This document shows positions 5,247 to 55,462 of a DNA stretch of 64,000 bases, piece by piece (position 1 is the stretch's first letter; each line of letters opens with the position of its first letter). Position numbers and translations under genes: made by a program. Location: contig DUPW01000044.1 of the NCBI GenBank assembly GCA_012838125.1, forward strand, positions 3,715 to 67,714. Reading direction: 5' to 3'. Under the pieces are notes generated by a model, which saw only the letters and a program-made list of their open reading frames with translations, ran no database searches and was not told the origin of the DNA. Origin of the DNA: Papillibacter sp. Its GTDB lineage: Bacteria; Bacillota; Clostridia; Oscillospirales; Oscillospiraceae.

Positions 5247-5275
5247 TTGAAAGAGACGGTAAAATGTGCTATACT
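5247..5275 (+). promoter_or_regulatory. sigma-A type promoter upstream of hfq
   Basis: TTGAAA (5247-5252), 17-nt spacer, TGcTATACT extended -10 (TATACT at 5270-5275). Confidence 0.5.
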
Positions 5276-5358
5276 GGCGGCATTCCGGGCGATATAGGGA
5301 AAAGAATACGCTATGGCAGGCGCATTTTGCCGTCGAAAGAAAGAAAGGACGGCAAACA

Positions 5359-5604
5359 ATGGGAAAGATACAGAATTTGCAGGAGACTTTTCTCAATCAG
5401 GCGCGTTGCTCGAAACAGCAGGTACTTCTATTTCTCGTCAACGGATTTCAGCTCCGCGGCGTCGTAACGGGGTTTGACAGCTTCGTCGTGGTACTGGAGA
5501 CGGACGGCAAGCAGCAGCTCATCTACAAGCACGCGATCTCGACGATCGTGCCGTCCCGTAACATCCCTCTGAATATTCAGGAGGATGAGACGGCGAAACC
5601 GTAG
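5359..5604 (+). CDS. hfq: RNA chaperone Hfq
   Basis: Sm motif [52 protein letters not shown]. Start trimmed to MGKIQNLQ (ATG 5359). Confidence 0.9.
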
Positions 5605-16197: not shown

Positions 16198-16893
16198 ATG
16201 AGAATGCGCAAAAAACGAAACCTCATCCCGCGCATGGAGCGCTGCGCCGCACTTCTCGTTAAGGAGCCAGCCCTTCATCGCAGCCGGTGGCGCAGCGATT
16301 TTCCGGGATTTCAGGAGCTGCACCTTGAAATCGGGTGCGGGCGCGGGCGCTTTACCGTTGAAATCGCAAAGCAAAATCCCCACGTTTTCTTTATAGCCAT
16401 CGAGCGGGTGGCGGACGCCATGATTATCGGCCTTGAGCGGGCCATGGAGGAGGGGCTGACGAACATCCGCTTTATCACGCAGGATGCGTCAAACCTTCTT
16501 GAATTCTTCGGCGAGGGGGAGCTGGACCGCATTTACCTCAATTTCAGCGACCCGTGGCCCGGCAAGCGGCACGCAAAGCGGCGCCTGACCTCGGAGCGGT
16601 TTCTCCCTGTCTACAAAAAAATCCTCCGCCCGGGCGGGGCCATCCACTTTAAGACGGACAATAACGAGCTGTTTGAATACTCCCTCGGGACCTTTCAGGA
16701 GGCGGGCTTTGCCCTTTCGGAAATCACCCGCAACCTGCACGAGCGAGGCCCTGTGGGCGCCATGACGGACTACGAGATGAAATTTCACGCGCAGGGTGTT
16801 TCAATTAACCGCTGCGTGGCTACATTTATAGGTGAACGGGACGAAGCGGCGCCGGATGCGGGCGCCGAACAGACAGAAAAGGTCGATGAATGA
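16198..16893 (+). CDS. trmB: tRNA (guanine-N7)-methyltransferase TrmB
   Basis: LEIGCGRGRF SAM motif and LNFSDPWPGKRHAKRRL signature. Confidence 0.9.
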   Translation: MRMRKKRNLIPRMERCAALLVKEPALHRSRWRSDFPGFQELHLEIGCGRGRFTVEIAKQNPHVFFIAIERVADAMIIGLERAMEEGLTNIRFITQDASNLLEFFGEGELDRIYLNFSDPWPGKRHAKRRLTSERFLPVYKKILRPGGAIHFKTDNNELFEYSLGTFQEAGFALSEITRNLHERGPVGAMTDYEMKFHAQGVSINRCVATFIGERDEAAPDAGAEQTEKVDE

Positions 16894-18272
16894 TGCGGAA
16901 AATCAGGTTTCTTCTTGCACTCTGGCTTGGGAAATGTGCGCGGCTGGCTCTGCGCGCTCTCAGGCGCAACGCCACCTTTTTCCCCGGCGTTGTGGCACTG
17001 AAAATCTGCCCGGATTTTCTCGGGCAGGTGGACAAGCCGGAGAACATCATCGCCGTCACCGGTACAAACGGGAAGACGACGGTGTCTAACCTCATCGCAG
17101 ACGTGTTGACGGACCGGGGCCATCGCGTCCTGAGTAACCGTCTTGGCTCAAACGTGGCCGCCGGTATCGCCACGACGCTGCTTTACGGTAGCTCTCTCTT
17201 CGGCAAAACGCGGTATGAGACGGCGGTTCTGGAAATCGACGAGCGCTCATCCAAGCGCATTTACCCGTACTTAACGCCCAAGTGGCTTGTTGTGACGAAC
17301 CTGTTTCGCGACTCCGTCATGCGCAATGCCCATCCGGAGTACATCGCAAACTTCATTTCGCAGGCCATTCCGCGAAAGACGAAGCTGGTGCTCAATGCCG
17401 ATGACCTCATCTCCTCCCGCATCGCGCCGGAAAATGACCGCGTTTACTTCGCCGTGGACAGGATGGAGACGGACGTGGTGGAGTGCATTAACCTCATAAA
17501 CGACCTGCAAATCTGCCCGACGTGCAGCGGGGAGCTGCAGTACGACTACCGCCGCTATCACCACATCGGGCGCGCCCACTGCCGTGACTGCGACTTTAAG
17601 TCCCCCGAGGCGCATTACTTCGCCACAGACGTGGACACCACAGACATGACCATGACGGTGACGGACAAGCAGGGCGGCCGCGTCGTCTATCCCCTTCTCA
17701 GCGACAGTGTGTTTAACATCTACAACGTGGTCACCGTGGCGGCGGCTATGCGGGAGTTTGGGCTGACCCACGAGGAAATTTCGGAGAGCCTTGGGAAAAC
17801 GAAAATCGTGGAAACGCGGTTTAACGCGAGGCAGGCGGGGAACGTGCGGGTCGTGATGCAGATGTCGAAAGACAAAAACGCTCTGGCCGGCTCCCGGGCC
17901 TTCGACTACGTCAGCCAGCTGCCCGGGGAGAAGGAAATCATCCTCATGATGAACTGCCTTGCCGACCAGAAAAACTGGTCGGAGAACACCACGTGGCTCT
18001 ACGACTGCGACTTTGAATTTCTCGCCCGGGAGGGCATCTCCCGCATCGTGTGCACCGGCCCACGGGCTAAGGACTATTACCTGCGGCTGCTTCTTGCGGG
18101 GGTACCGGAAGAACGGCTGCGCTGCACCCTCTCGGAGCTGGACGCACCGGAGCTTTTAGAGTATCGCCCCGGAGAGAGCGTGTGCCTGTTTTACGGGACG
18201 GACGCCTTGGACCTCGTCTATAAAGTGCAGGCGAAGATTGTGGAATGCGCGGAGGAGGCGGCGGCGAGATGA
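16890..18272 (+). CDS. murT: MurT-like Mur-ligase family protein (lipid II isoglutaminyl synthase, ligase subunit type)
   Basis: P-loop AVTGTNGKTT, Cys4 ribbon CPTCSGELQYDYRRYHHIGRAHCRDC and a DUF1727-like C-terminus (WLYDCDFEFL). Confidence 0.85.
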   Translation: MMRKIRFLLALWLGKCARLALRALRRNATFFPGVVALKICPDFLGQVDKPENIIAVTGTNGKTTVSNLIADVLTDRGHRVLSNRLGSNVAAGIATTLLYGSSLFGKTRYETAVLEIDERSSKRIYPYLTPKWLVVTNLFRDSVMRNAHPEYIANFISQAIPRKTKLVLNADDLISSRIAPENDRVYFAVDRMETDVVECINLINDLQICPTCSGELQYDYRRYHHIGRAHCRDCDFKSPEAHYFATDVDTTDMTMTVTDKQGGRVVYPLLSDSVFNIYNVVTVAAAMREFGLTHEEISESLGKTKIVETRFNARQAGNVRVVMQMSKDKNALAGSRAFDYVSQLPGEKEIILMMNCLADQKNWSENTTWLYDCDFEFLAREGISRIVCTGPRAKDYYLRLLLAGVPEERLRCTLSELDAPELLEYRPGESVCLFYGTDALDLVYKVQAKIVECAEEAAAR

Positions 18273-18982
18273 CCATTGAAATTCTCTACCCCGAAGTGTG
18301 CAACCTCTACGGGGACCTTATGAACATCGAGTACCTGCGCCGTGCCGTGCCGGAAGCGGAGGTTGTGAAAACGTCTCTCAAGACCCGCCCGGCGTTTTTA
18401 GATCGGGACGTGAGCCTCGTGTACTTAAGCTCCATGACGGAGCGGGCGCAGATACTGGTAAGGGACGCCATGACGCCCCATCTTGATGCCCTCAAACAGA
18501 AAATCGAAGAGGGCCTGCCCATCCTCGCCACCGGAAACGCCATGGAGCTATTTATCCGTGAAATTCAGGACGAAGACGGGACAAAAACACCCATGCTGGG
18601 GCTTTTTGACCTGCAGGCAAAGCGTACCATGGAGCGGCGCTATAACGCCCTGTACCTCGGCAGATTTGAGGACATGGACATCTTAGGCTTCAAGAGCCAG
18701 TTTTCCCACGCGTATGGGGGCGAAGACGTGCCGGCGCTGTTTGAAACGGTGCGGGGCGCGGGGCGAAATCCCGGGGAGACACGAGAAGGAATCCGCTATA
18801 AGAACTTTATGGCGACGTATCTGTTAGGGCCCCTTCTTGTTCTGAACCCACCCTTTACGCGCCTTATGCTCCGGCTCATCGGTGCGGGGGACCGCCCCGT
18901 CCCCTTTGAGAAGGCCGCTATGGACGCATACACCCTGCGCCTTGACGAATTTAAGGACCCCAAACGCGGGTTTACCTACTGA
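18269..18982 (+). CDS. GatD/CobQ-type glutamine amidotransferase-like protein, apparently lacking the catalytic Cys and His
   Basis: ATGA overlap with murT. Collinear with GatD, but the elbow reads LPILATGNAMELF and the C-terminal motif reads ATYLLGPLL. The only Cys in the protein is residue 11. Confidence 0.75.
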   Translation: MTIEILYPEVCNLYGDLMNIEYLRRAVPEAEVVKTSLKTRPAFLDRDVSLVYLSSMTERAQILVRDAMTPHLDALKQKIEEGLPILATGNAMELFIREIQDEDGTKTPMLGLFDLQAKRTMERRYNALYLGRFEDMDILGFKSQFSHAYGGEDVPALFETVRGAGRNPGETREGIRYKNFMATYLLGPLLVLNPPFTRLMLRLIGAGDRPVPFEKAAMDAYTLRLDEFKDPKRGFTY

Positions 18983-18986
18983 TAAC

Positions 18987-19841
18987 ATGGAGATTATCTT
19001 TCACGAAACGGAAACAGAAATCCGCCACGCGGCGGATTTTGACCTTGAAAAGACATTTAACTGCGGCCAGTGCTTCCGCTGGCACCGACAGGAGGGTGAC
19101 CCCTCCGAGGACGCCTTTATCGGCGTGGCGTACGGCCGCGCCGCCCGTGTACGGCAGACGGGTGAGGGCATTTTTATCAGCGGCGGCAGAGAGGATTTTG
19201 AATTTCTCTGGCGGGACTACTTTGACATCGAGCGGGACTACGACGCCATCCGCAAAATGCTCGCCGTGGACCCCTACATGACCCGGGCGGCGGAGTACGG
19301 GGCGGGCATTCGCATCCTGCGGCAGGAGCCATGGGAGGCGCTGTGTACGTTTATCGTCTCCCAGTGCAACAACATCCCCCGTATTACGCAGATTGTGGAG
19401 AACCTCTGCCATCTTTTCGGCGAGCCGGTGGCGTTTGAGAGAGAGACCCTCTACGCCTTTCCCGCGCCGGAGATTGTGGCGTCCCTATCTGAAGAAGACT
19501 TAGCGCCGCTTCGGAGCGGATACCGGGCCAGGTACATCCTCGGCGCGGCGCGGGCCGTGGCAGAGGGGCGCCTTGACCTTGAGGCACTCAAGAAGGCGCC
19601 GGAGCGGAAGGCCATCGAGGCCTTAAAAACCCTCGATGGGGTGGGGGAAAAAGTCGCCCAGTGCGCCGCCCTCTTCGGGCTGGGGAAGCTCAACGCCTTC
19701 CCCGTGGACACATGGATGAAGAAGGCCCTCTCTGCCGAATACGGCGGCGGCGTGGACCTGGCCCGCTTTGCGCCTTACGCCGGCATCGCTCAGCAGTACA
19801 TCTTCCATTACGCCCGCAGCAGCGCGCGCTCATCTTCATAA
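18987..19841 (+). CDS. ogg: HhH-GPD DNA glycosylase, 8-oxoguanine glycosylase (OGG)/AlkA-like
   Basis: N-terminal OGG_N-like FNCGQCFRW. HhH-GPD LDGVGEKVAQCAALFGLG..FPVDTW with Lys and Asp present. Start trimmed to MEIIFHE (ATG 18987). Confidence 0.8.
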   Translation: MEIIFHETETEIRHAADFDLEKTFNCGQCFRWHRQEGDPSEDAFIGVAYGRAARVRQTGEGIFISGGREDFEFLWRDYFDIERDYDAIRKMLAVDPYMTRAAEYGAGIRILRQEPWEALCTFIVSQCNNIPRITQIVENLCHLFGEPVAFERETLYAFPAPEIVASLSEEDLAPLRSGYRARYILGAARAVAEGRLDLEALKKAPERKAIEALKTLDGVGEKVAQCAALFGLGKLNAFPVDTWMKKALSAEYGGGVDLARFAPYAGIAQQYIFHYARSSARSSS

Positions 19842-19849
19842 GAAACAGC

Positions 19850-19885
19850 AAACGCCGAACGGAGGGGAGGTTCCGTTCGGCGTTT
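19850..19885. terminator. bidirectional intrinsic terminator hairpin after ogg
   Basis: Perfect 13-bp stem AAACGCCGAACGG / CCGTTCGGCGTTT with a 10-nt loop. Confidence 0.8.
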
Positions 19886-19960
19886 GCCCTGTAGAGGAAG
19901 AAACAATCACAATTTATGGAGAAAACCATAAAGGCGGGAGGAATCAGAAGGTAAGGCAGA

Positions 19961-19997
19961 AAACAAAAAGCTGCATCAACAGTAAAGTTGATGCAGC
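19961..19997 (-). terminator. intrinsic terminator (expression platform) of the cobalamin riboswitch
   Basis: Minus strand: GCTGCATCAAC-TTTACT-GTTGATGCAGC followed by TTTTTGTTTT. Confidence 0.75.
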
Positions 19998-20055
19998 CGT
20001 TTTTCCGCATACAGTATAAGCCGCCTGTGAGCCGAACGCGGGCTCAAGCGGCACA

Positions 20056-20247
20056 CTCCAAGCAGGTCTTCTGACTGGCGCATCCGGCAGATATCTGCCT
20101 GCGGGTCTGCTCGGCCTTCCCAGTTTCCCAGTGACCGACTTTCGTCTAAAGCAAACCCTCCGCGCTTACAGCGGCGGTTCCGTTCGGGATTTGCACCCGA
20201 TTTCCTATTCTCCCCCGAAAGCCCTACGCTCAAGGGGGCACTTGAAG
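20056..20247 (-). promoter_or_regulatory. cobalamin (AdoCbl/B12) riboswitch aptamer
   Basis: The minus-strand RNA contains AAUAGGAAAUCGGGUGCAAAUCCCGAACGGAACCGCCGCUGUAAGC, GUCACUGGGAAACUGGGAAGGC and the B12 box GCCAGUCAGAAGACCUGC. It is closed by P1 CUUCAAG/CUUGGAG. Confidence 0.85.
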
Positions 20248-20268
20248 AATCCTTATCTAATTGAAACA

Positions 20269-20297
20269 ATTTTACCCTACAAGGCGGGATTTGTCAA
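20269..20297 (-). promoter_or_regulatory. sigma-A consensus promoter driving the riboswitch RNA
   Basis: Minus strand: TTGACA (20297-20292), 17-nt spacer, TAAAAT (20274-20269). Confidence 0.6.
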
Positions 20298-20482
20298 CAA
20301 AATCCGCCTTTTTCCGCCTCGGGAGGAAAGTTTTCGCCACGATGAGAGCGCCTATCGGGCGGATGCGCGAATCGTCTAGAGCGGCCGCCCTGTTGTGCTA
20401 GGTGCGCAAAACCGCCCGTGCCGCCCCTTTACGCCATCGCGCAAAACCTCACGCTTTGGGGGGCATACTGTGTGGATGCCTG

Positions 20483-21313
20483 TTATAGGGGTGCGCTCAC
20501 AAACCCCTTCGGCGTGAGCACCTTCGCGTAACGAAATCCCACGCTGCGGGCCAGCTCCGCCGTGTCGTCGTATCGGTATCCCATGGAGGCGGCGTCGTGA
20601 CTGTCACTGGTGAGGAGAATCTCGCCGCCCCGGGCACGGATTTCCCGCAGGATAAAGGGGGCGGGGTAGGGCACTTTTCGCCCCACGCGGTACATCCCGC
20701 CGGTGTTGATCTCAAAGACCTGCACCCTCTCCATAACGGCGGCGAGGGCATCGAGGGCGGCGGCGCGATAGCGGGGGTCCTCCTCGTCGAAGAAAAGGCC
20801 TTCCCCGTTGTATTTTGTCACAAGATCAAAATGGGCGACGAAATCGGGGGTAAACGTGCGGCCGATGGTGGCGACGGATTCGTAATACGCCCGCACAAAG
20901 GCGTAATAGTCCCCGCCGAAAAAGCGGGTCACGCCCTCTTTAAGGCCCTCGGCGCTGGCGTCAGCGTAGACGAGGGCGCCCTCTTTCTCCACCGCATGGC
21001 AGGCGCCGATGATGTAGTCAAACGTCCCTTCGGGCAGGGGCGCGAGAACATCCTGCTCGATGCCGCAGTAGACGGCGATGCAATCGGCGTACTTGTCCTT
21101 AAGCCGCGCCATCTCCTCCATGAACTGAAACGTGCCGACGGGGGTCATACACCACTCGGTGGGGTGGCCCATGTACACGTGGCCGGAGATGCCAATGACG
21201 TCAAATCGGGCCTTGATGGCGGCGCGCACCATCTCCTGCGGGGTAAGGGAGCCGTCGTCAAATGTGGAGTGGGCGTGCAGATTGCTCCGCAAGGGAGCAG
21301 GAAGGGTGGTCAT
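20483..21313 (-). CDS. hisJ: histidinol-phosphatase, PHP (HisJ/HisK) family
   Basis: PHP motifs [10 protein letters not shown] and [10 protein letters not shown]. Last gene of the his operon. Confidence 0.85.
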
Positions 21314-21956: not shown

Positions 21957-22715
21957 TTAAATCCTCGCCGGTATGCCTTCACGGGCAAGAAGTTGTTTGA
22001 GCGCAGGGATTTCCACCTCGCCGAAGTGGAAGATGGAGGCGGCAAGACCTGCGTCCACCTTCGGAATCGTCTTAAACAGCTGCACGAAATCCTCCGAAGA
22101 GCCGGCGCCGCCGGAGGCGATGACGGGGATGCTCACGGCGTCGCATACCGCCTGAAGCATCTCAAGGTCAAACCCGCCTTTCACCCCGTCAGTATCGATG
22201 CTGTTCACCACAATCTCGCCGGCGCCCAGGGACTCGCCCTGCCGCACCCACTCGATGGCGTCAAGCCCCGTATCCTCACGCCCGCCCCGGGCAAAGACGC
22301 GAAACTGCCCGTCCACGCGCTTTATATCCACCGACAGCACCACGCACTGATTTCCGTATCTGCGCGCCGCATCCCGGATAAGGTCCGGATTTCTCAGGGC
22401 GCCGGAGTTGACGCTCACTTTATCCGCGCCGCATTTAAGGACCCGGTCGAAATCCTCCAGGGAGTTGATGCCTCCCCCCACGGTGAGGGGGATGAAGATG
22501 CAAGAGGCCACCTCCCGCAAGATGTCCGTAAACAGACGCCGCTCCTCCACGGAGGCGGTGATGTCGTAAAACACAAGCTCATCGGCCCCCGAGTCGCTAT
22601 AGTGCTTTGCGAGGGTGACGGGGGAGCTAACGTCCCCCAGCTGCTGAAATTTTACGCCCTTAACGACCCGTCCGTCCTTCACGTCAAGGCACGGGATAAT
22701 GCGTTTTGTAATCAT
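21957..22715 (-). CDS. hisF: imidazole glycerol phosphate synthase cyclase subunit HisF
   Basis: [42 protein letters not shown]. Confidence 0.97.
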
Positions 22716-29617: not shown

Positions 29618-30289
29618 TTATCGCCACTCGCGGATATTCTGGGCGGAGTTATGCCCGCTTTTGTGTTCGTACGCCACAACAATACGACGGTTCGGTTCGG
29701 AACCGACGGAGTACGTTGTAACATTCGGAAAGCCCTGCAGCGCCGTGTGGATAACGTGGCGTTCGTAGGAATTCATGGGTTCGAGGGTCATATTGCGACG
29801 ATATTTGACGACTTTCGCCGCGACTTTGGCGGCCAGCTTCTCCAGTGCCTCGTTGCGGCGGGCGCGGTAGTTTTCCGCGTCGATGTTCACCCGCACCCGG
29901 CTGGTGGCCTTTTTGTTGACGATATAGTTCGTCAGGTGTTGAATCGCGTCGAGGGTTTCGCCACGGCGGCCGATGAGGGCGCCCGGGTCGTCCCCCGTGA
30001 GGATGACGGAGATGACGCCGTCCTCCTCTTCAGTGATATGGGGCGTGGCGCGTACGCCCATGCGCTCAAAGAGCCCCGTTAGAAACTGCTCCACCCGCTC
30101 GCTCTGGGTGTCAGGGCGCTCGTAAGACACGCGCACAACGGCGGGACTGCTTTTTAAACCGAGAAAGCCCGACTTGGCTCGCTCGATGATTTCAACGGTC
30201 ACATCGTCGCGCTGCAGGCCAAGCTGACTGAGCGCGTTCTGAATAGCTTCTTCTTCGGTTTTCCCGGATACTTCGATCGAAACGAACAT
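29618..30289 (-). CDS. khpB: Jag/KhpB RNA-binding protein (Jag_N, KH, R3H)
   Basis: GKTEEEAIQNALSQLG (Jag_N). IGRRGETLDAIQHL (KH). ERHVIHTAL (R3H). Start chosen at ATG 30289, 9 nt after AAGGAG. Confidence 0.85.
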   Translation of the reverse strand: MFVSIEVSGKTEEEAIQNALSQLGLQRDDVTVEIIERAKSGFLGLKSSPAVVRVSYERPDTQSERVEQFLTGLFERMGVRATPHITEEEDGVISVILTGDDPGALIGRRGETLDAIQHLTNYIVNKKATSRVRVNIDAENYRARRNEALEKLAAKVAAKVVKYRRNMTLEPMNSYERHVIHTALQGFPNVTTYSVGSEPNRRIVVAYEHKSGHNSAQNIREWR

Positions 30290-30370
30290 TTCGGTCATCT
30301 CCTTAAGGCCCCGCTGCGGTGGGCGGCGCATGATTCTCTGCCGAAAGACTCCGGCGTTTGTTCCTGAAGG

Positions 30371-31789
30371 CTATTGTACGTCATCCGGCTGTGTGTATTC
30401 CGGAGTCGAAAGTGTGCCCTCCGTCAGGTCTCCCGCGTCCTCGGCGGCTGCGTCTTCCCCGGCTACGCGCGGCTGCGCTTCGGAAGAGTCAGACGCTTCT
30501 TCAGCATCGGAAACAGGCTCGTTTTGCACCGTCTCAGGTGCGGGTTCGTGGAGGGGGGCTGTTTTTTCCACAATAGCTGTGGACTCCGCCTCCTCGTTTT
30601 CTTCCGGCTCCTCGGCGGCGGGCTGATTCTGGAAGTTCTTATCGAAACGGTGCGGGTCGTAAGCGCGGCCCCGGGCATAACGGCGGTTGCCGACGCGGCT
30701 GGGCTCGGCGTCCTCGTCAGACTCGGAGGGGGGCGCGTGTTTCTTCGCCCACTCTGCTGCCCGCTCCTGTTTGATGCGGCGTTCTTCTTTCAGCTGTTTT
30801 TTCTTAGAGGTGTTGGGGTTGCGCTCCACTGCGTTGGCTTCCCGCAGGCGCTCCGTTTCGAGGCGCTTGGCCTCAAGCTCGGCCTCTCGCTTGCGCTGGG
30901 CTTCGTACCGCTCGGCATCCTCTATGTCGAGGGTTTTCGTGTAGTACTTCGTGAGGATAACATCCTGAATGAAGGCGAACAGGGAGCTGAAGATGATATA
31001 CACACCGATAGCACCCGGCATGATAAAGGCAAAGTAGACGGAAATGAGGGGCATAAACAGGAGCATAGAGGAGCTCTGCTGCTGCACCTGGCTGTTTGAC
31101 GCGTTCATTTTCATGCTCACCCGGGCCGACAGAAAAGCAAGAAGGCCGGAGATAAAGGGGAGCAGAAACAGGCCGAGTCCCGGCAGCCATACGGAGGGGT
31201 TCGACCAATCCGTGGTCCACAGGAAGTTCCACTGGGGCCGCTGGCCGAGGTTCATCCCGATAAAATTATAGTCGATAGCGCGCAGTTTATCACTGAGGGG
31301 CGCAAAGGAACTAAAGTGCTGGGAGATAAACTGGGCCTGATCAATTTCCAGATAGTTGGCGCTCATGGTCGGCGAAAAGTTAAGACTACTGAGCTTTTCG
31401 AAAATGGAGCCGCCTTCCACCAGCATTTCCTTGGGGATGGCCATCATCGTAGTGAGGGGACGGCTGATGGCGGAAAACAGGGCGATGATAATCGGGAAGG
31501 GAATAAGGGACCACAGGCAGCCCGACATGGGATTGACGCCCTCTTCCCGATAGAGCTTCTGCAATTCCTCGTTGAACTTTTGCTTGTTGGCGCCGTGGCG
31601 CTTTTCAAGCTCCTTGATTTTCGGCTGCAGGCGCGACTGTTTCATCATGCCGCGCTTCGATTTCATCTGAAACGGCAGGAGTATGACTTTGACGATGAGG
31701 GCAAAGAGAATGACGGCCAGGCCATAGTTGCCCACGAATTCGTACAGCCGAATTAGAAGCCAGCCGAACGGTTTAGCAATGGTGTTCAA
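30371..31789 (-). CDS. yidC: YidC/Oxa1 membrane protein insertase with about 190-aa charged C-terminal extension
   Basis: GLAVILFALIVKVILLPF..MMKQSRLQPKIKELEKRH..LYREEGVNPMSGCLW core. Residues from about 283 to 472 form a K/R/E-rich then acidic tail. Confidence 0.9.
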   Translation of the reverse strand: MNTIAKPFGWLLIRLYEFVGNYGLAVILFALIVKVILLPFQMKSKRGMMKQSRLQPKIKELEKRHGANKQKFNEELQKLYREEGVNPMSGCLWSLIPFPIIIALFSAISRPLTTMMAIPKEMLVEGGSIFEKLSSLNFSPTMSANYLEIDQAQFISQHFSSFAPLSDKLRAIDYNFIGMNLGQRPQWNFLWTTDWSNPSVWLPGLGLFLLPFISGLLAFLSARVSMKMNASNSQVQQQSSSMLLFMPLISVYFAFIMPGAIGVYIIFSSLFAFIQDVILTKYYTKTLDIEDAERYEAQRKREAELEAKRLETERLREANAVERNPNTSKKKQLKEERRIKQERAAEWAKKHAPPSESDEDAEPSRVGNRRYARGRAYDPHRFDKNFQNQPAAEEPEENEEAESTAIVEKTAPLHEPAPETVQNEPVSDAEEASDSSEAQPRVAGEDAAAEDAGDLTEGTLSTPEYTQPDDVQ

Positions 31790-39674: not shown

Positions 39675-39800
39675 TCCTTTATCTGTGTAAAAAAAGTATA
39701 CATGATGGGCAGGGCCTTGTCCACGCGGGAAGAGCCGCTTGACAAAAGTTTTTGCCCGGTAATAGAATGGGGAGGACTGAAACAGTCAGGAGGAGCGAGT

Positions 39801-40328
39801 ATGGCACAAGGTCTTGTTCATGTGTACTACGGATACGGAAAAGGGAAGACGACGGCCGCTCTGGGTCTGTGCCTTCGGGCCTGCGGGAGCGGGAAAAAGG
39901 CCGTCATCGTGCAGTTTTTAAAAGATACCCCCAGCGGGGAGATTAAGTCTCTCAGCTGCCTTGAAAACGTCACCCTCCTGCGGGGCAAGGCGGGGGGAAT
40001 GTTCGTCTCCGATATGACGGAGGAGCAAAAGGAAGAGACCCGCCGGATTCACAACGAAAATCTGCAAAAGGCGCTGGACCTTGTGACGCAGGGCGAGTGC
40101 TGTCTTCTCGTCCTCGACGAAGCCATGGACGCTCTGCAGCTGGATGTGCTGGACGCCGCCCTTGTGCGGAACCTGCTTGAAAACAAGCCGCCGGAGCTGG
40201 AAGTGGTCATCACAGGCCACAAGCCCATCCACTGGGTGATGGACAAGGCCGATTACATCACGGAGATGGTGAAAGTCCGCCACCCCTTCGACAAAGGGAT
40301 TCCCGCCCGAAAAGGGATTGAGTTTTAG
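39801..40328 (+). CDS. cobO: cob(I)yrinic acid a,c-diamide / cob(I)alamin adenosyltransferase, CobA/CobO/BtuR type
   Basis: GLVHVYYGYGKGKTTAALGL..VIVQFLK..LLVLDE..ADYITEM..HPF. Only the C-terminal 175 codons of the track ORF 39201-40328 are real (AGGAGG RBS before ATG 39801). Confidence 0.85.
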   Translation: MAQGLVHVYYGYGKGKTTAALGLCLRACGSGKKAVIVQFLKDTPSGEIKSLSCLENVTLLRGKAGGMFVSDMTEEQKEETRRIHNENLQKALDLVTQGECCLLVLDEAMDALQLDVLDAALVRNLLENKPPELEVVITGHKPIHWVMDKADYITEMVKVRHPFDKGIPARKGIEF

Positions 40329-41900: not shown

Positions 41901-41930
41901 GAAAAAGGCGGGACGCTACGTCCCGCCTTT
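41901..41930 (-). terminator. intrinsic terminator after apbE
   Basis: Minus strand: GGCGGGACG-TAG-CGTCCCGCC followed by TTTTTCG. Confidence 0.7.
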
Positions 41931-41942
41931 ATCAAAGTCTTT

Positions 41943-42995: not shown

Positions 42996-44081
42996 TTAAC
43001 CTCCCACGGCGGATTTTTCAATGGCCTTAATGAAATCACCGATGGAAATGGTGACTTCAGATTTTAAGTCCTCCGACTGGGGCGTGCCGCCTTCGCTGAC
43101 GGAGATACCCTTCACTTCCGATAAGGTCTTGCCCACCACATATTCCGAGAAGGCCTTGGCCTGCTCGTTCCACTCCTTGCCGATGGCGGAGGCCTTCTTC
43201 ATGCCGTAGCCCTCGCCCATCTCGTTTTTCGATTTAAACTCTGTGGAGAGGTCCGTGGTAATGGTGCCGGACTTCGTGAAGGCGACGGTGGTGATGCAGC
43301 TGTCGATGATATTGCCGGTGATGACGCCGCCGCTGTTTTGCGTCGTGGCCGCCACGGTGACGGTGAGCTGCGCCGTCCCGTCTTTCTCGGCGGTGGCGGA
43401 AGCGGATTTGCTCATATCCGTCACGATGCCAAGCCGCAGAGCGTCCCCTTCAGAAAGGCCTTCCGGAGCGTCCTGTGCGGAGGAGGCGGCCTTCTCAATA
43501 GCCTGCATAAAGGCGCCCACGGACACGGTGACGGAGGATTTCAGGTCCGCCCCCGTGGGGTAGTTCTGCTCGTCCACTTTAATGTCTTTCACTTCAGCTA
43601 TGGTCTTGCCCTCCACGTAGCTTGCGAAGGCCTGAGCCTGTTCGTACCATTCCTTGCCGATGGAGGAGGCCTTTTTCATGCCGTACTCGTCCGCCAGCTC
43701 GTCTTTGGATTTAAACTCAGTGCTCGGGGGCGTCACCAACTCGCCGTTTTTATTAAAGGCGATGGCGGCGGACACGGCGTCAATAACGCATTTGACGATT
43801 TTTCCGTCCTTATCCAGCACCACGGCGGCGATGGTCATATCCGTCTGGGCGGCGCCGTCCGCCTCGCCGGCGTTTTTCGACTTGGCCACGGAGGCCACGA
43901 TGCCAAGGCCCATCTTCATCTCGCCGCCTTCTCCTCCGCCCGAGGGGGCCGAGGGAGAGGGGGAGGGGGATGCGCCGCCGGTGGGCGACGGTGAGGGCGA
44001 AGGCGTCGGCTCCTTGCGGCAGGCCGATAAAGGTGCGATGAGCAAAAGGGCAACAAGGAAAAACAAAAGGATTTTTTTCAT
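42996..44081 (-). CDS. lipoprotein made of two tandem about 145-aa repeats, remote FMN_bind-like; candidate ApbE substrate
   Basis: Lipobox LSAC and a PSPSPS linker. The repeats share TEFKSK(D/N)E..YGMKKAS(S/A)IGKEW(Y/N)EQA(Q/K)AF..GKT..EVK..DLKS(S/E)VT(V/I)S(V/I)G.F..AIEK. Confidence 0.6.
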   Translation of the reverse strand: MKKILLFFLVALLLIAPLSACRKEPTPSPSPSPTGGASPSPSPSAPSGGGEGGEMKMGLGIVASVAKSKNAGEADGAAQTDMTIAAVVLDKDGKIVKCVIDAVSAAIAFNKNGELVTPPSTEFKSKDELADEYGMKKASSIGKEWYEQAQAFASYVEGKTIAEVKDIKVDEQNYPTGADLKSSVTVSVGAFMQAIEKAASSAQDAPEGLSEGDALRLGIVTDMSKSASATAEKDGTAQLTVTVAATTQNSGGVITGNIIDSCITTVAFTKSGTITTDLSTEFKSKNEMGEGYGMKKASAIGKEWNEQAKAFSEYVVGKTLSEVKGISVSEGGTPQSEDLKSEVTISIGDFIKAIEKSAVGG

Positions 44082-44169
44082 TTGTGAAACCACCTTTCAA
44101 CGTGCGACTTAAGGTCAAGGGTTATTTGTGCCATAAAATTAGGATTGCACAATTTAGGAGTATTTATAA

Positions 44170-45613: not shown

Positions 45614-46270
45614 TCAGGGGATGCTGAAAGGTTGGCCTTGAAAATAGCGGACGAGGGCGTCTTCCTCAAGGCGCAGGATGTTTCGCTCCTCAAGGGGCGC
45701 CGCTCCGCAGACGGAGACGATAAAATCCCCCTCCTGCAGGGTGGTGAAGAGGCCGAAATCGTCAGAGAACGTGTCAACAGAGTGAAGATTTATGGAAAGT
45801 CCGCGGCCGTCCCGCTTGACGGCGGCTTCTTTACGGGTCCAGACTTCAAAAAAGCGGGCCTCCTGCCCCTCCGGACGGGACAAAACATACGCCTGCTCAC
45901 GGGGGCTGAGTACGCGACGGAGCACTCGCTGCCGCACCGGGCCTATGCGCTCTGCGTCCACGCCCACGGGGGCGCTAGAGATGCACACCGCCGCGGCGCC
46001 GTTGGTGTGGGACAGGCTCCACTGGATGCCCAGATTCGGGGAGTAGGGCTTGCCCGTCGGCCCCCGCTCGATGACAATCTCCCCGGGATGGCGGCCGCTT
46101 GCTTCGCTTAAAGCAAAGCGCACGAGAAGATGCCCCATAGCGGCGGCTTTTGCCTGAGTTATCCGCCTTATGGACGCACAGCGCCGCCGAACATCCTCCG
46201 GAAGGTGGGAGAAGAGGGCCTCGTGAAGGGGCCCGTCGGGGCGGAAGATGAGGAAAAAGAGTTTTGGCAT
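45614..46270 (-). CDS. 4'-phosphopantetheinyl transferase, Sfp type
   Basis: GKPY..WSLSHTNGAAAV..VGVDAERI..FFEVWTRKEAAVK. Confidence 0.85.
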   Translation of the reverse strand: MPKLFFLIFRPDGPLHEALFSHLPEDVRRRCASIRRITQAKAAAMGHLLVRFALSEASGRHPGEIVIERGPTGKPYSPNLGIQWSLSHTNGAAAVCISSAPVGVDAERIGPVRQRVLRRVLSPREQAYVLSRPEGQEARFFEVWTRKEAAVKRDGRGLSINLHSVDTFSDDFGLFTTLQEGDFIVSVCGAAPLEERNILRLEEDALVRYFQGQPFSIP

Positions 46271-46381
46271 GGCAAAATCCTTAAACGTCGAGATAATATT
46301 GCATCATTTTCCGCTGTCTTTATGCGGAATTTCCCGCGTCATGGCAAAGGGCACAAACCCAAAGAAAGCGCTCTTTTATCC

Positions 46382-46642
46382 TTATTGCAGTGCCAGCTCA
46401 AAGACATGCCGCACGCCCTCAAGGCTTGGCACGCCTTCGTGGACCTTTTTGCCGTCGACATAAAAGGTCGGCACGCGGTAATAATCAAATTGATCTGCAA
46501 AGGCCTTCTCCTTTTCCTCATCGATGATGCGGAGAGGGATGTCCTTGTACGCAGGCTTCTCTTCAAACAGCTGATCGATGTAAACGCGCGCTTTTCTGCA
46601 GTGTGGGCACCAGCTGGTAATAAACAGCATTACGTCTTTCAT
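46382..46642 (-). CDS. glutaredoxin/thioredoxin-fold protein (CPHC)
   Basis: MLFITSWCPHCRKAR..VPTFYVDGKKV. Start trimmed to ATG 46642 after a GGGAGGG RBS. Confidence 0.75.
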   Translation of the reverse strand: MKDVMLFITSWCPHCRKARVYIDQLFEEKPAYKDIPLRIIDEEKEKAFADQFDYYRVPTFYVDGKKVHEGVPSLEGVRHVFELALQ

Positions 46643-46785
46643 ACAATAGCCCTCCCGTTTTATCATGCCTCGTTTTCGCCGAAAGCGGCGCGTTTGGGGG
46701 CGGTGATTTTTAGAAAATTATAACACTTCTTGTTATTGTTTGTAAAGCGGTGTCGCTAAGAAAGAGGGGCCGGTTTAAGACAAAA

Positions 46786-47477: not shown

Positions 47478-47507
47478 TGAATAGTTACCCGTCTGCTGAG
47501 GATACTA
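47478..47507 (+). promoter_or_regulatory. forespore-type (sigma-G/sigma-F-like) promoter upstream of spoVT
   Basis: TGAATA (47478-47483), 17-nt spacer, GATACTA (47501-47507). Compare the B. subtilis sigma-G consensus GHATR-N17/18-CATxHTA. spoVT is sigma-G dependent in Bacillus. Confidence 0.5.
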
Positions 47508-47535
47508 CTAATGTGTAAATAAGGGAGGGTCTAAA

Positions 47536-48075
47536 ATGAAAGCAACCGGAATTGTCCGCAGAATTGACGACCTGGGACGTGTTGTTATACCCAAGGAAAT
47601 TCGCCGGACAATGAGAATCCGCGAAGGAGATCCGCTGGAGATATACACCGAAAAAGACGGCGAAGTGATTTTCAAAAAATACTCTCCGATGGGGGAATGG
47701 AGCGAAAGCGCCAACCAAATCTGTGAAACGCTCTATAAAACGGCAGGCTGCTGCACCGCCGTGGCCGACCGGGATACGTATATTTCCGTATTCGGCGTCC
47801 CCAAACGGGAACTGACGGATAAGCACATCAGCCCGGAACTGGAACAGCTCATGGAAGCGCGCCGGATGTATCAGCGCAAGAGCGGCGAAAAGGGGCTGCC
47901 GATGCTCGACGGCAACGAGAAGTATATCATCGAGACAGCCGCCCCGATTATTTCCGAAGGGGATGTGATGGGCTGCGTCGTCTTCTTCTCGGAGGGCGAG
48001 AAAACCCTCGGCGAAGTGGAATACAAGCTTGCTCAAACCGTAGCCGGCTTTCTTGGGAAACAGTTGGAAGCATAG
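47536..48075 (+). CDS. spoVT: stage V sporulation protein T (AbrB-type N-domain plus GAF-like C-domain)
   Basis: MKATGIVRRIDDLGRVVIPKEIRRTMRIREGDPLEIY is nearly identical to the Bacillus SpoVT N-terminus. 179 aa. Confidence 0.95.
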   Translation: MKATGIVRRIDDLGRVVIPKEIRRTMRIREGDPLEIYTEKDGEVIFKKYSPMGEWSESANQICETLYKTAGCCTAVADRDTYISVFGVPKRELTDKHISPELEQLMEARRMYQRKSGEKGLPMLDGNEKYIIETAAPIISEGDVMGCVVFFSEGEKTLGEVEYKLAQTVAGFLGKQLEA

Positions 48076-48084
48076 TACGTTTTG

Positions 48085-48121
48085 GCGCCGTTTTGTAGTC
48101 TGGCAAAACGGCGCATTTTTT
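48085..48121 (+). terminator. intrinsic terminator after spoVT
   Basis: GCGCCGTTTTG / CAAAACGGCGC stem followed by ATTTTTTAT. Confidence 0.8.
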
Positions 48122-48257
48122 ATGCGCGTCACGCCACGCTGACAAGGAAACGGGAGAGGGACATCATACCGCGCGCTGCAAAACCGATATGACAGGACGG
48201 TAAAAAGGCGGTTTGCCCATTGCGCCGAGGGCGGCGACGCCTTCGTGGGCGCAGTAT

Positions 48258-48300
48258 GAAAAATCGACATAGCGGGGCAGGCCCGCTATGTCGATTTTTT
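48258..48300. terminator. bidirectional hairpin terminator downstream of hpf
   Basis: 18-bp stem AAAAATCGACATAGCGGG / CCCGCTATGTCGATTTTT. Confidence 0.75.
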
Positions 48301-52515: not shown

Positions 52516-52821
52516 TTGAGCTCTTCGGCAAAATTCTACTTTAAACCCGCAGAAGGGGAGTACATAGAGACGAATGTGCGGCTGGAACCTGAAAAAACGG
52601 CGGCAATCTGCGGAACGGTGCGGGATAAGAGCGGCCAGCCGCAAACAGGCGCCCTTGTTCTGCTTTTTCGCTCCGGTCAGGAGAATGTGCTTATTGATCG
52701 TCACATTACCGACGAAGACGGACAGTTTTCGTTCGGCCCCCTTGAGCCGGACGTTCTTTATCTCATAAAGGTCTATAAGAACAATATTAAAATCAGGGAA
52801 CTGGAAATTGTTGCCGAATGA
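52516..52821 (+). CDS. small carboxypeptidase-regulatory-like (CarboxypepD_reg) beta-sandwich domain protein
   Basis: [47 protein letters not shown] start 10 nt after AAGGAGG. Confidence 0.55.
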
Positions 52822-52964
52822 TAGGGGAAAATTTCAAATTGCCGCCGGAAGATTGTGGAAGTCTTTGCGGCGGCAATTGACTTTAGAGCCAGCACAGAAT
52901 AAAATAATCGGAGACTGCCGCCTTATAAAAAGCGGCAGAAAACCTTTATGGGAGACAAAAACCC

Positions 52965-53933
52965 GTGCAAATAGGACAAGTTCCCGTTTCGTCCCGTTTA
53001 GCCCTCGCGCCCATGGCGGGCGTGTGCGACAGAGCCTTTCGCGCGATATGCCGCGAAAAGGGCGCGGGACTGACGTATACAGAAATGGTCAGCGCCAAGG
53101 CGCTTGTTTATCAGGATTCAAAGACCCGCGGCCTTTTGCGCCTGAGCGATGGGGAGCACCTCGCTGCCGCGCAGATTTTCGGCAGCGACCCGGCGTGCAT
53201 GGGCGAGGCCGCCGCCCTTGCGCTGGAGATTTCCGGCGCAGACTTCATCGACATCAACATGGGATGCCCCGTGGGCAAAATCGTGAAAAGCGGAGACGGC
53301 AGCGCCCTCATGCGGGACCCCGACAAGGCCCAGCGCGTGATTGAAAGCGTCGTAAAAAGCGTCCCTTGCCCCGTCACGGTGAAAATCCGCAAAGGGTGGG
53401 ACAGCGGCAGCATTAACGCCGTGGAGTTTGCCAGAATGGCGGAGGAAGCGGGCGCCGCGGCCATTGCCGTTCACGGACGGACACGGGTGCAGATGTATTC
53501 CGGCAGAGCCGACTGGGACATTATCCGCGCCGTCAAGGAGGCGGTGCGCGTGCCCGTTATTGCAAACGGCGATGTATTCGCTCCGGAGGACGCCGTGCGC
53601 ATCTTAAAGGTCACCGACTGCGATATGGTGATGATTGGCCGAGGGGCCTTCGGCAACCCGTGGCTCTTCCAGCAGGCAAATGCGGCGCTGGAGGGGTTAC
53701 CCATCCCGCCCCTGCCGCCGATACCGGAGCGCATTGACACGGCCCTGCGCCAGCTTGAACTGGCTACTGAGGATAAGGGCGAGCGTGTTGCGTGTCTTGA
53801 GGGGCGGCGCCATTTCGCGTGGTACCTCAAGGGCGTGCGCGGCGCGAGCTTTTTCCGCGAAAAAATTATGAAAGTGGAGACGGTGGAGGAGTTTCGCCGC
53901 CTGGCGGACGTGATGAAACGAGAATTGAGGTGA
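52965..53933 (+). CDS. dusB: tRNA-dihydrouridine synthase
   Basis: LAPMAGVCDRAFR..IDINMGCPV.KIVKSG.GSALM..VTVKIR.GW..AIAVHGRTR. Confidence 0.92.
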   Translation: MQIGQVPVSSRLALAPMAGVCDRAFRAICREKGAGLTYTEMVSAKALVYQDSKTRGLLRLSDGEHLAAAQIFGSDPACMGEAAALALEISGADFIDINMGCPVGKIVKSGDGSALMRDPDKAQRVIESVVKSVPCPVTVKIRKGWDSGSINAVEFARMAEEAGAAAIAVHGRTRVQMYSGRADWDIIRAVKEAVRVPVIANGDVFAPEDAVRILKVTDCDMVMIGRGAFGNPWLFQQANAALEGLPIPPLPPIPERIDTALRQLELATEDKGERVACLEGRRHFAWYLKGVRGASFFREKIMKVETVEEFRRLADVMKRELR

Positions 53934-53937
53934 GGCA

Positions 53938-54582
53938 ATGACGGCTACGGAAGAACGTGACATCATCCGGCGTGTTCTCGAGGGGGACACGCAGGCGTTT
54001 GAGCAGCTCGTTGCCGAAAACGAGAGGAAGGTCTATGCCCTGGCGTTGAAGATGGTGGGCAACGAGGAAGACGCACTGGATATGGCGCAGGAGAGTTTCA
54101 TCAAGGCCTTCTCGGGCCTCAAAGGCTTTCGGGGAGAAAGCCGCTTTTCCGTCTGGCTGTACCGCCTTACATATAATATCTGCATCGACTTTATCAGAAA
54201 ACGCAAGCGCACCCAGACCTACGCGCTGGCCTATACGGACGAGGACGGGGAGACGACGGAGCTGGAGATTGCAGACGAGAGCACCGACCCTGTCGCCATC
54301 ATGGAGACGAACCAGCTTCGCCGGGTGCTGGCTGAATGTGTGGACGCCCTGCCGCCGCATCATAAAGAGATTATCGTCATGCGGGAGATGACGGGCCTGA
54401 GCTATCAGGACATCGCCCGCACTTTGAATATCAGCGAAGGGACGGTCAAATCCCGCCTGGCCCGGGCCCGCAGGAAACTGGCGGAACTGCTGAGAAGAAA
54501 TCCCGGGTTTGACGAGGGAACTTTTATTCAGGAAGACCGTCATACAGGTGAAAGGGAGGTGGAGACGCATGACTTCTTGTGA
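53938..54582 (+). CDS. ECF-type RNA polymerase sigma factor
   Basis: Region 2 (FEQLVAENERKVYALALKMVGNEEDALDMAQESFIKAF..WLYRLTYNICIDFIRK) and region 4 (REMTGLSYQDIARTLNISEGTVKSRLARAR). Confidence 0.9.
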   Translation: MTATEERDIIRRVLEGDTQAFEQLVAENERKVYALALKMVGNEEDALDMAQESFIKAFSGLKGFRGESRFSVWLYRLTYNICIDFIRKRKRTQTYALAYTDEDGETTELEIADESTDPVAIMETNQLRRVLAECVDALPPHHKEIIVMREMTGLSYQDIARTLNISEGTVKSRLARARRKLAELLRRNPGFDEGTFIQEDRHTGEREVETHDFL

Positions 54583-55462
54583 AGAATTTGAGGAGCTTTT
54601 AAGCGCCTTAATCGACGGCGAACTGACGCCGGAAGAACACGAAAAAATTGACGAACACATAACTAAATGCAAGGCGTGCGCGTCTCTGCTGAAGCTGTAT
54701 AAGGCCATGTCAAAGGAGCTTTCGGCGGTGCCGAAGCCGCCGGAGGATTTCCGGAAACGTGTGATGGACCGAATCGCCTCGTTGCCCGGGGAGCCGGGCA
54801 AAAAGCGCGGGAAATTGATATTCATAAAGCCATGGATGACGACGGTTGCGGCCGCGGTCTGTTTAGCGCTGATTCTGCTTGTCTCGCCCCTGCGGGGCGC
54901 CCTGCAGCCGAAAAAGGAGACGGAGGAATCTGCCCAGCTTATGCTCGCCGCCGCCCCGAGCGCCTTCCCGCAGGAGGCGGAAGGGGTCGGAACCTGCGAC
55001 GTGGTGGAGGACGGAGACGAATCAAACGTCTGGTTCAGCGCCTCTGAGGCAACGGACGATTCCGCCTCGCCGGATGAGCCCGTTTCAGGGAAAACGGATA
55101 GTGCGCCGCCGGCGGCGGGGATGGAAAAAGAAGCGCAAGCCCGCGGAAATGACGTCATCGGCGGTATCCAGACGGCGGAACGCCCCACAATGCAGGGCAT
55201 TTTAGGCTATGCGCCCCCGGGGGTATCCTCCATGCCGGAACCCACCATGGAAATGGCGGAAGCGGCGGTGTACTACGCCGTCATCACCGTGCACGGGGAG
55301 ATGCCTGAAGAGCTCACGGACATCGAATTCATGGCGCAGCCGGATGGGTACGAGACGGCGGAGATTCCCGTTGAAACGGCAAGGGCCCTCATTGACGCCG
55401 GATTTGAGGTCGTATACGGCGGCGAAGAGTGCCGAAAAGCCCTCGTGGTCTATTATCCGTAA
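54569..55462 (+). CDS. anti-sigma factor, zf-HC2 N-domain, single TM, extracytoplasmic C-domain of unknown type
   Basis: CEEFEELLSALIDGELTPEEHEKIDEHITKCKAC and TM helix TTVAAAVCLALILLVSPL. Overlaps the sigma gene by 14 nt. Confidence 0.8.
   Translation: MTSCEEFEELLSALIDGELTPEEHEKIDEHITKCKACASLLKLYKAMSKELSAVPKPPEDFRKRVMDRIASLPGEPGKKRGKLIFIKPWMTTVAAAVCLALILLVSPLRGALQPKKETEESAQLMLAAAPSAFPQEAEGVGTCDVVEDGDESNVWFSASEATDDSASPDEPVSGKTDSAPPAAGMEKEAQARGNDVIGGIQTAERPTMQGILGYAPPGVSSMPEPTMEMAEAAVYYAVITVHGEMPEELTDIEFMAQPDGYETAEIPVETARALIDAGFEVVYGGEECRKALVVYYP

Follow-up and report, generated by a model that had tools for sequence, protein, structure and literature searches.

Riboswitch-gated regulatory RNAs are, to our knowledge, represented by very few cases, and those responding to vitamin B12 (cobalamin) are all found at the eut/pdu loci of Listeria and Enterococcus. 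Here we describe a cobalamin riboswitch with its own promoter, two successive terminators and no gene behind it, located on the minus strand of a 64,000-nucleotide (nt) stretch of a Papillibacter sp. (Oscillospiraceae) genome (GenBank assembly GCA_012838125.1, contig DUPW01000044.1, positions 3,715 to 67,714; hereafter the window), between the end of the his operon and the convergent ogg gene. This element, referred to below as the orphan unit, probably represents a stand-alone, functional, B12-responsive non-coding unit, and no published report of it, or of a B12 orphan riboswitch outside the eut/pdu loci, was found in a literature search of incomplete coverage.

EutX (Enterococcus faecalis) and Rli55 (Listeria monocytogenes) are riboswitch-containing small RNAs (sRNAs) that have an AdoCbl riboswitch in their 5' part, whose full-length form is produced only without B12 and whose regulatory module resides in the 3' part (PMC8237595). 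The orphan unit is similar to them in having its own promoter, a B12 aptamer, a presumably ligand-controlled terminator and no open reading frame (ORF) and, as we infer, in switching between isoforms. It differs from them in the 3' part, which in EutX/Rli55 uses a dual hairpin as a decoy for EutV, an ANTAR regulator, and here is a predicted unstructured tail without paired hexaloops, as well as in genomic context (the eut locus with eutVW vs. his operon and murT-gatD-ogg neighbors) and in the aptamer, since the eut riboswitches use class IIb aptamers (PMC11477304), whereas the one described here is of the full-length RF00174 type with a peripheral extension.

Another B12-dependent case, AspocR of L. 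monocytogenes, is comparable in that a cobalamin riboswitch controls non-coding read-through towards an oppositely oriented gene. However, AspocR extends through the pocR coding region, while here the second terminator would stop the RNA at the ogg stop codon, allowing at most an overlap with the 3' untranslated region (UTR), and ogg has no known link to B12. Riboswitch transcripts without, or independent of, a downstream ORF are also exemplified, with different ligands, by SreA/SreB of Listeria, reportedly terminated S-adenosylmethionine (SAM) riboswitches acting in trans, and by an orphan cyclic di-GMP riboswitch of Clostridioides difficile. In SreA/SreB, in contrast to the orphan unit, the riboswitch still heads an mRNA, and we know of no conserved tail module described for the C. 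difficile orphan, which is listed among riboswitches without a known function (PMC11477304).

Composition of the orphan unit

The unit is flanked by the final gene of the his operon (hisJ, encoding a PHP-type histidinol phosphatase, minus strand, stop at 20483) and by ogg (OGG_N and HhH-GPD domains, plus strand, stop at 19841), both stop codons being where the first-pass annotation of this DNA had placed them. It comprises the following features:

20269 to 20297, minus strand: sigma-A type promoter (-35 box TTGACA at 20292-20297, 17-nt spacer, -10 box TAAAAT at 20269-20274)
20044 to 20260, minus strand: cobalamin riboswitch aptamer (RF00174) with a peripheral P6-type extension
20020 to 20052, minus strand: hairpin between P1 and the terminator, GCCGC-UUGAGCC-CGCGUUC-GGCUCA-CAG-GCGGC
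19991 to 20010, minus strand: antiterminator helix, AUGCGG (20005-20010) with CUGCAU (19991-19996), loop AAAAACGG
19960 to 19998, minus strand: intrinsic terminator T1, hairpin at 19969-19998 with the stem GGCUGCAUCAAC / GUUGAUGCAGC(U), then UUUUUGUUUU
19889 to 19959, minus strand: non-coding read-through tail between T1 and T2, mostly single-stranded by prediction
19935 to 19940, minus strand: C-rich tail motif CUCCCG
19903 to 19913, minus strand: tail motif AUUGUGAUUGU, present in four lineages
19837 to 19888, minus strand: second intrinsic terminator T2, hairpin at 19847-19888 with a GC-rich stem of 16-17 bp, then GUUUCUUAU

An Rfam cmscan of the whole 64-kb window yielded a single match, RF00174 (Cobalamin, clan CL00101), which scores 91.2 bits (E = 2.8e-21; gathering score 31.5 bits) over the full model (positions 1-189 of 189). 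The match occupies 20044-20260 of the minus strand and was recovered again when the sub-region was scanned by itself. This is the covariance-model check that the first-pass annotation had asked for, and it bears out the minus-strand cobalamin riboswitch proposed there. The P1 helix formed by CUUCAAG (20241-20247) and CUUGGAG (20055-20061) is the one named there, and the B12 box (AGUCAGAAGACCUGC) aligns to the RF00174 consensus together with GGUGCAAAUCC and GUCACUGGGAAACUGGGAAGGC. The aptamer is class-I-like, and in sequence, structure and platform the element qualifies as a genuine cobalamin riboswitch. The TTGACA-17-TAAAAT promoter (20297 to 20269) matches the consensus at 11 of 12 positions in a pattern scan, in agreement with its first description, and is predicted to start transcription at about 20260-20262. 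The resulting 427-nt RNA is predicted to be far more stable than its shuffled versions (z = -7.2).

The expression platform begins with the hairpin at 20020-20052, a position at which all family members have a hairpin, of differing sequence. This could be the P13 regulatory hairpin whose loop kisses L5; triplets of the CGG type are found repeatedly within or close to P13-like loops, and covariation of an L5-L13 kissing loop was not established among them. The antiterminator that follows excludes T1 by using a part of the 5' arm of the terminator (19991-19996). Each of these two helices covaries among eight distinct family members, with 97.9% of cells paired and compensatory changes in 4/6 pairs for the antiterminator, and 98.9% of cells paired and compensatory changes in 8/11 pairs for T1, while in controls with slid helices the paired fraction drops to 25–56% (25–54% for the antiterminator). 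Because both T1 and the mutually exclusive antiterminator covary, T1 appears to be a genuine B12-controlled terminator, and the platform is therefore regarded as intact in the orphan lineages. The T1 loops are of 4-6 nt without sequence conservation, and the pattern scan recovered T1 as first described (hairpin 19998-19969 followed by UUUUUGUUUU). The same hairpin together with CGUUUUUC scores as a plus-strand terminator too; the A-rich stretch 5' of T1 is a platform feature across the family, including loci without a convergent gene.

The usual cis context of such a platform, the 5' leader of a B12-related mRNA, is absent, as neither a Shine-Dalgarno (SD) sequence with a start codon nor a conserved ORF is found between T1 and ogg in any of the orphan lineages introduced below. 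Thus, the view that this riboswitch gates no ORF stands. The accompanying statement that the tail has neither SD nor start codon holds for the former only: an AUG exists at about 19926-19928, in a frame that is not conserved. The small minus-strand ORF starting there (MVFSINCDCFF) was rejected as it has no SD, a 1-nt indel interrupts the frame in the closest related lineage (L001), and a more distant one (L081) has no in-frame AUG. A plus-strand candidate, MEKTIKAGGIRR, fared no better, with a different peptide encoded in L001 and no ATG in L081. No conserved ORF was found in the tail on either strand when the frames were read from the orphan sequences.

Conservation of the gene-less unit and its cis-acting relatives

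Comparison with related genomes and metagenome contigs revealed the same unit in additional lineages. The closest species-level genome (L001) is a Clostridiales metagenome-assembled genome from an anaerobic digester with an ogg product 79% identical at the amino acid (aa) level, and it carries the whole unit between hisJ and convergent ogg (aptamer 91.6 bits). A third lineage, recovered from Logan and JGI samples as L081-84, L094 and L097, also has the whole unit (92.4 bits) next to an ogg that is 73% identical. Its sister L085 (ogg 87% identical to that of L081) is represented by a contig ending within the tail, in which the tail motifs and T2 are visible, and L086 is a strain 99% identical to the window. 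The full promoter-aptamer-T1-tail-T2 unit is thus present in three lineages and the tail with T2 alone in the fourth, and the synteny of ogg and riboswitch is maintained in all of them. In the comparative check of the hisJ-ogg region proposed at the outset, the unit occurs without an ORF in relatives, and none of the relatives checked gave an orthologue with the riboswitch plus a gene.

The conservation of the unit contrasts with the divergence around it. When the three main lineages are compared, the 4-fold degenerate positions in ogg and hisJ have an identity of 0.41–0.65, and the DNA from hisJ to the -35 box cannot be aligned among the orphan lineages. Nevertheless, the promoter hexamers (TTGACAAA and TA(A/G)AAT) are preserved in all three full-length lineages, as is the P1 helix; aptamer identity amounts to 0.74–0.89, and across these three sequences compensatory double changes have occurred in six base pairs of the aptamer. 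The retention of aptamer, hexamers and stems despite near-saturated neutral sites points to purifying selection on RNA structure and not to a recent leftover. On this comparative evidence, the gene-less state is a conserved trait of a small clade as opposed to a one-off deletion. The clade is indeed narrow: among the best 80 species-level ogg loci, L001 alone has the riboswitch, as assessed with Rfam on 13 loci and with a B12-box regular expression of limited sensitivity on all 80. In relatives at 55–62% aa identity, ogg is followed by MatE (L100, L102) or hisJ by unrelated genes (L104, L105), with no riboswitch at these loci. A recent local deletion of a gene behind the riboswitch is not confirmed by the sequences compared and retains some probability.

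Behind T1, the tail is of 71 nt in the window, 60 nt in L001 and 36 nt in L081. Predicted folds of the T1-to-T2 region in these three lineages show two strong hairpins around a mostly unpaired linker that bears the motifs. CUCCCG is shared by the window/L086, L001, L081 and L085, and in the window and L001 it forms part of CCUCCCGC. The predicted folds leave it unpaired in L001 and L081, and in the fold of the window its last G is paired. It is a candidate for the SD-complementary C-rich seed of a base-pairing sRNA of the Firmicute kind, with an intrinsic terminator behind it, hfq present in the window and no specific target identified there. The second motif, AUUGUGAUUGU, has the same sequence in the window, L001 and L081, with a partial duplication in L081; it matches at 10/11 positions in L085 and occurs once in the whole window. 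The three seed motifs named by the first-pass annotation were thus upheld in part: for the first, conservation is limited to its CUCCCG core, while the second, UUCUUCCUC, is absent from L081 and L085, the third, the T2 loop AACCUCCCCU, is not conserved, and the best-conserved tail motif, AUUGUGAUUGU, was missing from that annotation altogether. Given neutral divergence, the probability that such shared runs arise by chance is estimated at p ~0.01–0.05, which is suggestive, not conclusive. No Rfam family matched the tail, with sub-threshold noise alone at E-values up to 10. A decoy for an ANTAR regulator such as EutV was also considered and rejected, since paired hexaloop hairpins are not found in the tail, the only hairpins being T1 and T2.

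T2 had originally been taken for a 13-bp bidirectional hairpin (19850-19885). Its stem is in fact 16-17 bp long (19847-19888), and its U-rich tract is present on the minus strand only, identifying it as a putative minus-strand terminator; the hairpin plus U tract reach the ogg stop codon. The stem is preserved via compensatory and G-U changes, with loops of 3-8 nt in predicted folds that are different in each lineage. The minus-strand version is predicted to be more stable than the plus-strand version by 7.6 kcal/mol in L001 (-33.6 vs. -26.0 kcal/mol) and by 10.3 kcal/mol in L081 (-38.5 vs. -28.2 kcal/mol). This higher stability, along with the strand-specific U tract, argues that T2 belongs to the riboswitch transcript.

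A scan of metagenome contigs with an exact 30-nt aptamer core pattern, yielding 13 loci, provided a comparison with conventional members of the same aptamer subfamily. The eight non-orphan loci (L087, L088, L090, L091, L092, L093, L098 and L099) have a common platform consisting of a post-P1 hairpin, a short helix with the loop AAA(A/U)(A/U)CGG and, behind it, a terminator with its U tract. A TTGAC-type -35 box with a TAnAAT -10 box occurs at the corresponding position in six of the eight, and AGGAGG followed by ATG is found ~10-25 nt after the U tract in all seven loci that reach past the terminator (L087 stops short). The downstream genes are of the DUF4430 type in L098 (29 bits, cutoff 23.8) and, below the cutoff, in L088 (20 bits); the L091 product has no Pfam match and is homologous to DUF4430-type proteins. 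L090 and L099 have an HNH-repeat protein at this place, and L092 a cbiA/cobB-like gene within a cob cluster. Since these relatives have an SD and ATG behind the homologous terminator, T1 in the orphan unit would gate a non-coding 3' extension. The orphan unit and the cobalamin riboswitches that act conventionally in cis on cob, cbi and B12-uptake operons have in common the aptamer subfamily, the promoter spacing (six of the eight loci), the P13-like hairpin, antiterminator loop, terminator and U tract, whereas at the place of their GGAGG the orphan clade has the anti-SD-like CCUCCC and then a second terminator. The closest cis-acting aptamer relative is the cbiA riboswitch of L092 (1741-1953), with 0.68–0.71 identity; it is about as near to the window as is L081 (0.72), suggesting that the orphan unit descends from a cob-type riboswitch.

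Some of these loci are unusual by themselves. Two cobalamin riboswitches of 105-111 and 77-80 bits are located on the same strand ~1.3 kb apart in L090 (10284-11926, minus strand) and L099 (877-2521, plus strand), and the second one heads a 115-aa protein with the homing-endonuclease-associated HNH_repeat (PF18780, E = 4.8e-16), an unusual first gene. On the 2.1-kb contig L092, two divergent cobalamin riboswitches (83.4 and 79.7 bits, within 576-1953) head cbiL-like and cbiA-like genes, respectively, and the long ORF between them looks CbiK-like by eye.

Proposed mechanism and alternative explanations

By analogy with the behavior of cobalamin off-switches, binding of B12 would stop transcription at T1, giving an RNA of ~300 nt. 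Under B12 scarcity, the antiterminator (20005-20010/19991-19996) would form and transcription would read through to T2, giving an RNA of ~420 nt. Read-through would add an unstructured tail of 36-71 nt with CUCCCG and AUUGUGAUUGU, and the long isoform would be the active species, acting in trans at low B12. Its action could involve pairing of the C-rich motif with SD-like GGGAG or pairing of the UG-rich motif; alternatively, the long RNA may titrate an RNA-binding protein. We give about even chances to the unit being a B12-gated non-coding RNA gene with the long isoform as effector. More tentative, and in our estimate somewhat short of an even chance, is the full proposal, in which the long isoform is a trans regulator switched on by B12 scarcity and would be the first B12-riboswitch-gated RNA outside the eut/pdu loci, with a new output based on single-stranded motifs. 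The trans-acting sRNA function already suggested in the first-pass annotation is itself an inference.

Several points weigh against this proposal. It is a prediction from sequence. Tail identity outside the motifs is low (0.27–0.52) and tail length varies two-fold, while the statistics of the two motifs (6 nt and 11 nt) are modest because the sample comprises just four related lineages, two of them sisters (ogg 87% identical). The tail overlaps a possible ogg 3' UTR on the opposite strand. No convincing complementary site for it was found in the 64-kb window, and GGGAG-type targets are too frequent in the genome to be informative.

Individual target candidates were rejected. RNAduplex runs against start regions in the window gave unrealistic energies dominated by spurious ORFs. 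The longest exact complement, a 12-mer (~0.5 expected by chance), is located in a terminator-like palindrome at about 41921-41932 and involves a non-conserved part of the tail. The start of hisF (AUGAUUACAA; GUGAUUACAA in L081) can pair with UUGUGAUUGU over 10 bp, of which 3 are G-U, in three lineages (window 22706-22715, L001 9627-9636 and L081 7574-7583, all on the minus strand). This match was judged not significant: the site is conserved anyway as coding sequence (MITK), and matches of such quality occur about once per kb.

The alternatives to a trans-acting long isoform differ mostly in the role assigned to the tail and T2. An origin from a cob-type riboswitch would also be compatible with a relic, in which a cob/btu-type riboswitch lost its gene in the ancestor of the clade and remained without function, T2 being retained to shield ogg from antisense transcription. 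The fact that the closest aptamer relative heads cbiA within a cob cluster (L092, 0.68–0.71 identity), the poor conservation and variable length of most of the tail and the restriction of the element to a narrow clade, with relatives at 55–62% aa identity lacking it, are all in line with such a history. We nevertheless consider it unlikely, as hexamers, aptamer core, compensated stems, terminator and antiterminator are all intact at 41–65% 4-fold identity and with unalignable flanks, whereas 300 nt with an active promoter, if free of selection, should have decayed over such divergence; an orthologous riboswitch-plus-gene locus was not found among the relatives checked. The convergent layout, with T2 abutting the ogg stop codon and the synteny with ogg maintained in all orphan lineages, suggests yet another possibility, namely a cis-antisense or 3'-overlap regulator of the murT-gatD-ogg transcript that would act by AspocR-like processing of the RNase III type or by transcriptional interference. 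As T2 has no plus-strand U tract, whereas T1 with CGUUUUUC scores as a plus-strand terminator, the ogg mRNA may end at T1, in which case the low-B12 RNA would be perfectly complementary to ~110-150 nt of the ogg 3' UTR. However, a strong T2 would halt the RNA ahead of the ogg coding region, and perfect pairing requires no conserved motifs, yet two are kept. Moreover, the A-rich stretch behind the plus-strand U tract of T1 is family-wide, being present also where there is no convergent gene, and B12 has no obvious physiological tie to 8-oxoguanine repair or lipid II amidation, so that we assign a rather low probability to an antisense role.

The tail would be incidental if the short, B12-bound terminated RNA were the active species, acting in trans as described for SreA/SreB or buffering free cobalamin. 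The aptamer and platform are in fact the best-conserved parts of the unit, its promoter is a strong consensus one, and trans-acting terminated riboswitches are generally known for SAM riboswitches; but the conserved tail motifs and the strand-specific T2 are left unexplained, and for an RNA to soak up B12 stoichiometrically is quantitatively implausible, making an active short isoform quite improbable. A similarly slim chance is given to the tail motifs serving the plus strand, either as an element of the ogg 3' UTR or in a small RNA that starts from a weak TTGCCC-18-CACAAT promoter and ends at T1, an option compatible with the trans-acting long isoform. It would account for the overlap of ACAAUCACAAU with the -10-like CACAAT/TACAAT, the SD-like appearance of CGGGAG and the plus-strand score of T1. 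On the other hand, the promoter-like site is under the scan threshold (8/12 matches), its -35-like TTGCCC is missing in L081 and L085, the associated ORF is not conserved (MEKTIKAGGIRR in the window, another peptide in L001, no ATG in L081), and selection on T2 concerns the minus strand. At the corresponding plus-strand site (19889-19925 in the window), L001 has a 17-nt spacer and L081 the -10-like box TACAAT only.

A trans-acting long isoform, if confirmed, would mean post-transcriptional control of B12-economy or other genes in uncultured Clostridia from anaerobic digesters, and that riboswitch-plus-sRNA fusions arose more than once, in this case by co-option of an ordinary cob-type riboswitch. 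The present data point to conversion of such an ordinary cis-acting cob-operon riboswitch into a metabolite-gated non-coding RNA, independently of the known cases. Being only ~420 nt long, with 3' ends at two defined positions and a pair of short conserved motifs, the unit may provide a compact testable system, allowing one to ask how the B12 status is broadcast to other genes in members of corrinoid-exchanging anaerobic communities. Should it turn out to be inert, it would still be an example of riboswitch persistence after gene loss.

Neighboring genes and additional observations

Upstream of ogg and apparently in a single operon with it are murT (Mur_ligase_M and MurT_C) and a gatD-like gene for a CobB/CobQ-type amidotransferase (16890-18982, plus strand). 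The latter bears a "Cob" domain name and, as the partner of MurT, is not expected to be a B12 gene. A Pfam scan of 57 window ORFs detected no eut, pdu or ANTAR domains. The presence of hfq and cobO in the window, reported by the first-pass annotation, was reproduced, with hfq at 5266-5604 and a cobO/CobA-like ORF at about 39801-40328 that was assigned only by its GYGKGKTTAA P-loop motif. Along with hfq, a gene for the RNA-binding protein KhpB/Jag (Jag_N, KH and R3H domains), which adjoins yidC (29618-31789, minus strand), brings the number of candidate RNA chaperones in the window to two. Ahead of the cobO ORF, at 39720-39803 (plus strand), are a separate promoter-like site, TTGACA-17-TAGAAT, and the SD sequence AGGAGG, and the Rfam cmscan of the window found no riboswitch in the cobO leader. 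The predicted 5' end of this leader, GGGGAGGAC, is complementary to CCUCCC of the tail and is a generic SD-like sequence.

Several long ORFs have no Pfam match at E = 0.001 (129-1103 and 52808-53344 on the plus strand; 42996-44093, 47485-48270 and 53866-55200 on the minus strand), and neither does the ORF at 46130-46723 (plus strand), scanned at E = 1e-5 only; some of them may be spurious frames of GC-rich DNA.

The minus strand lacks a canonical intrinsic terminator from the hisJ stop codon to the riboswitch promoter (20300-20482), the sole notable hairpin (GGCGGAUUU...AAAUCCCGCC, at about 20280-20310) holding the -35 box in its loop. Transcription of the his operon may therefore run on into the riboswitch unit, and T1 and T2 might double as terminators of the his operon.

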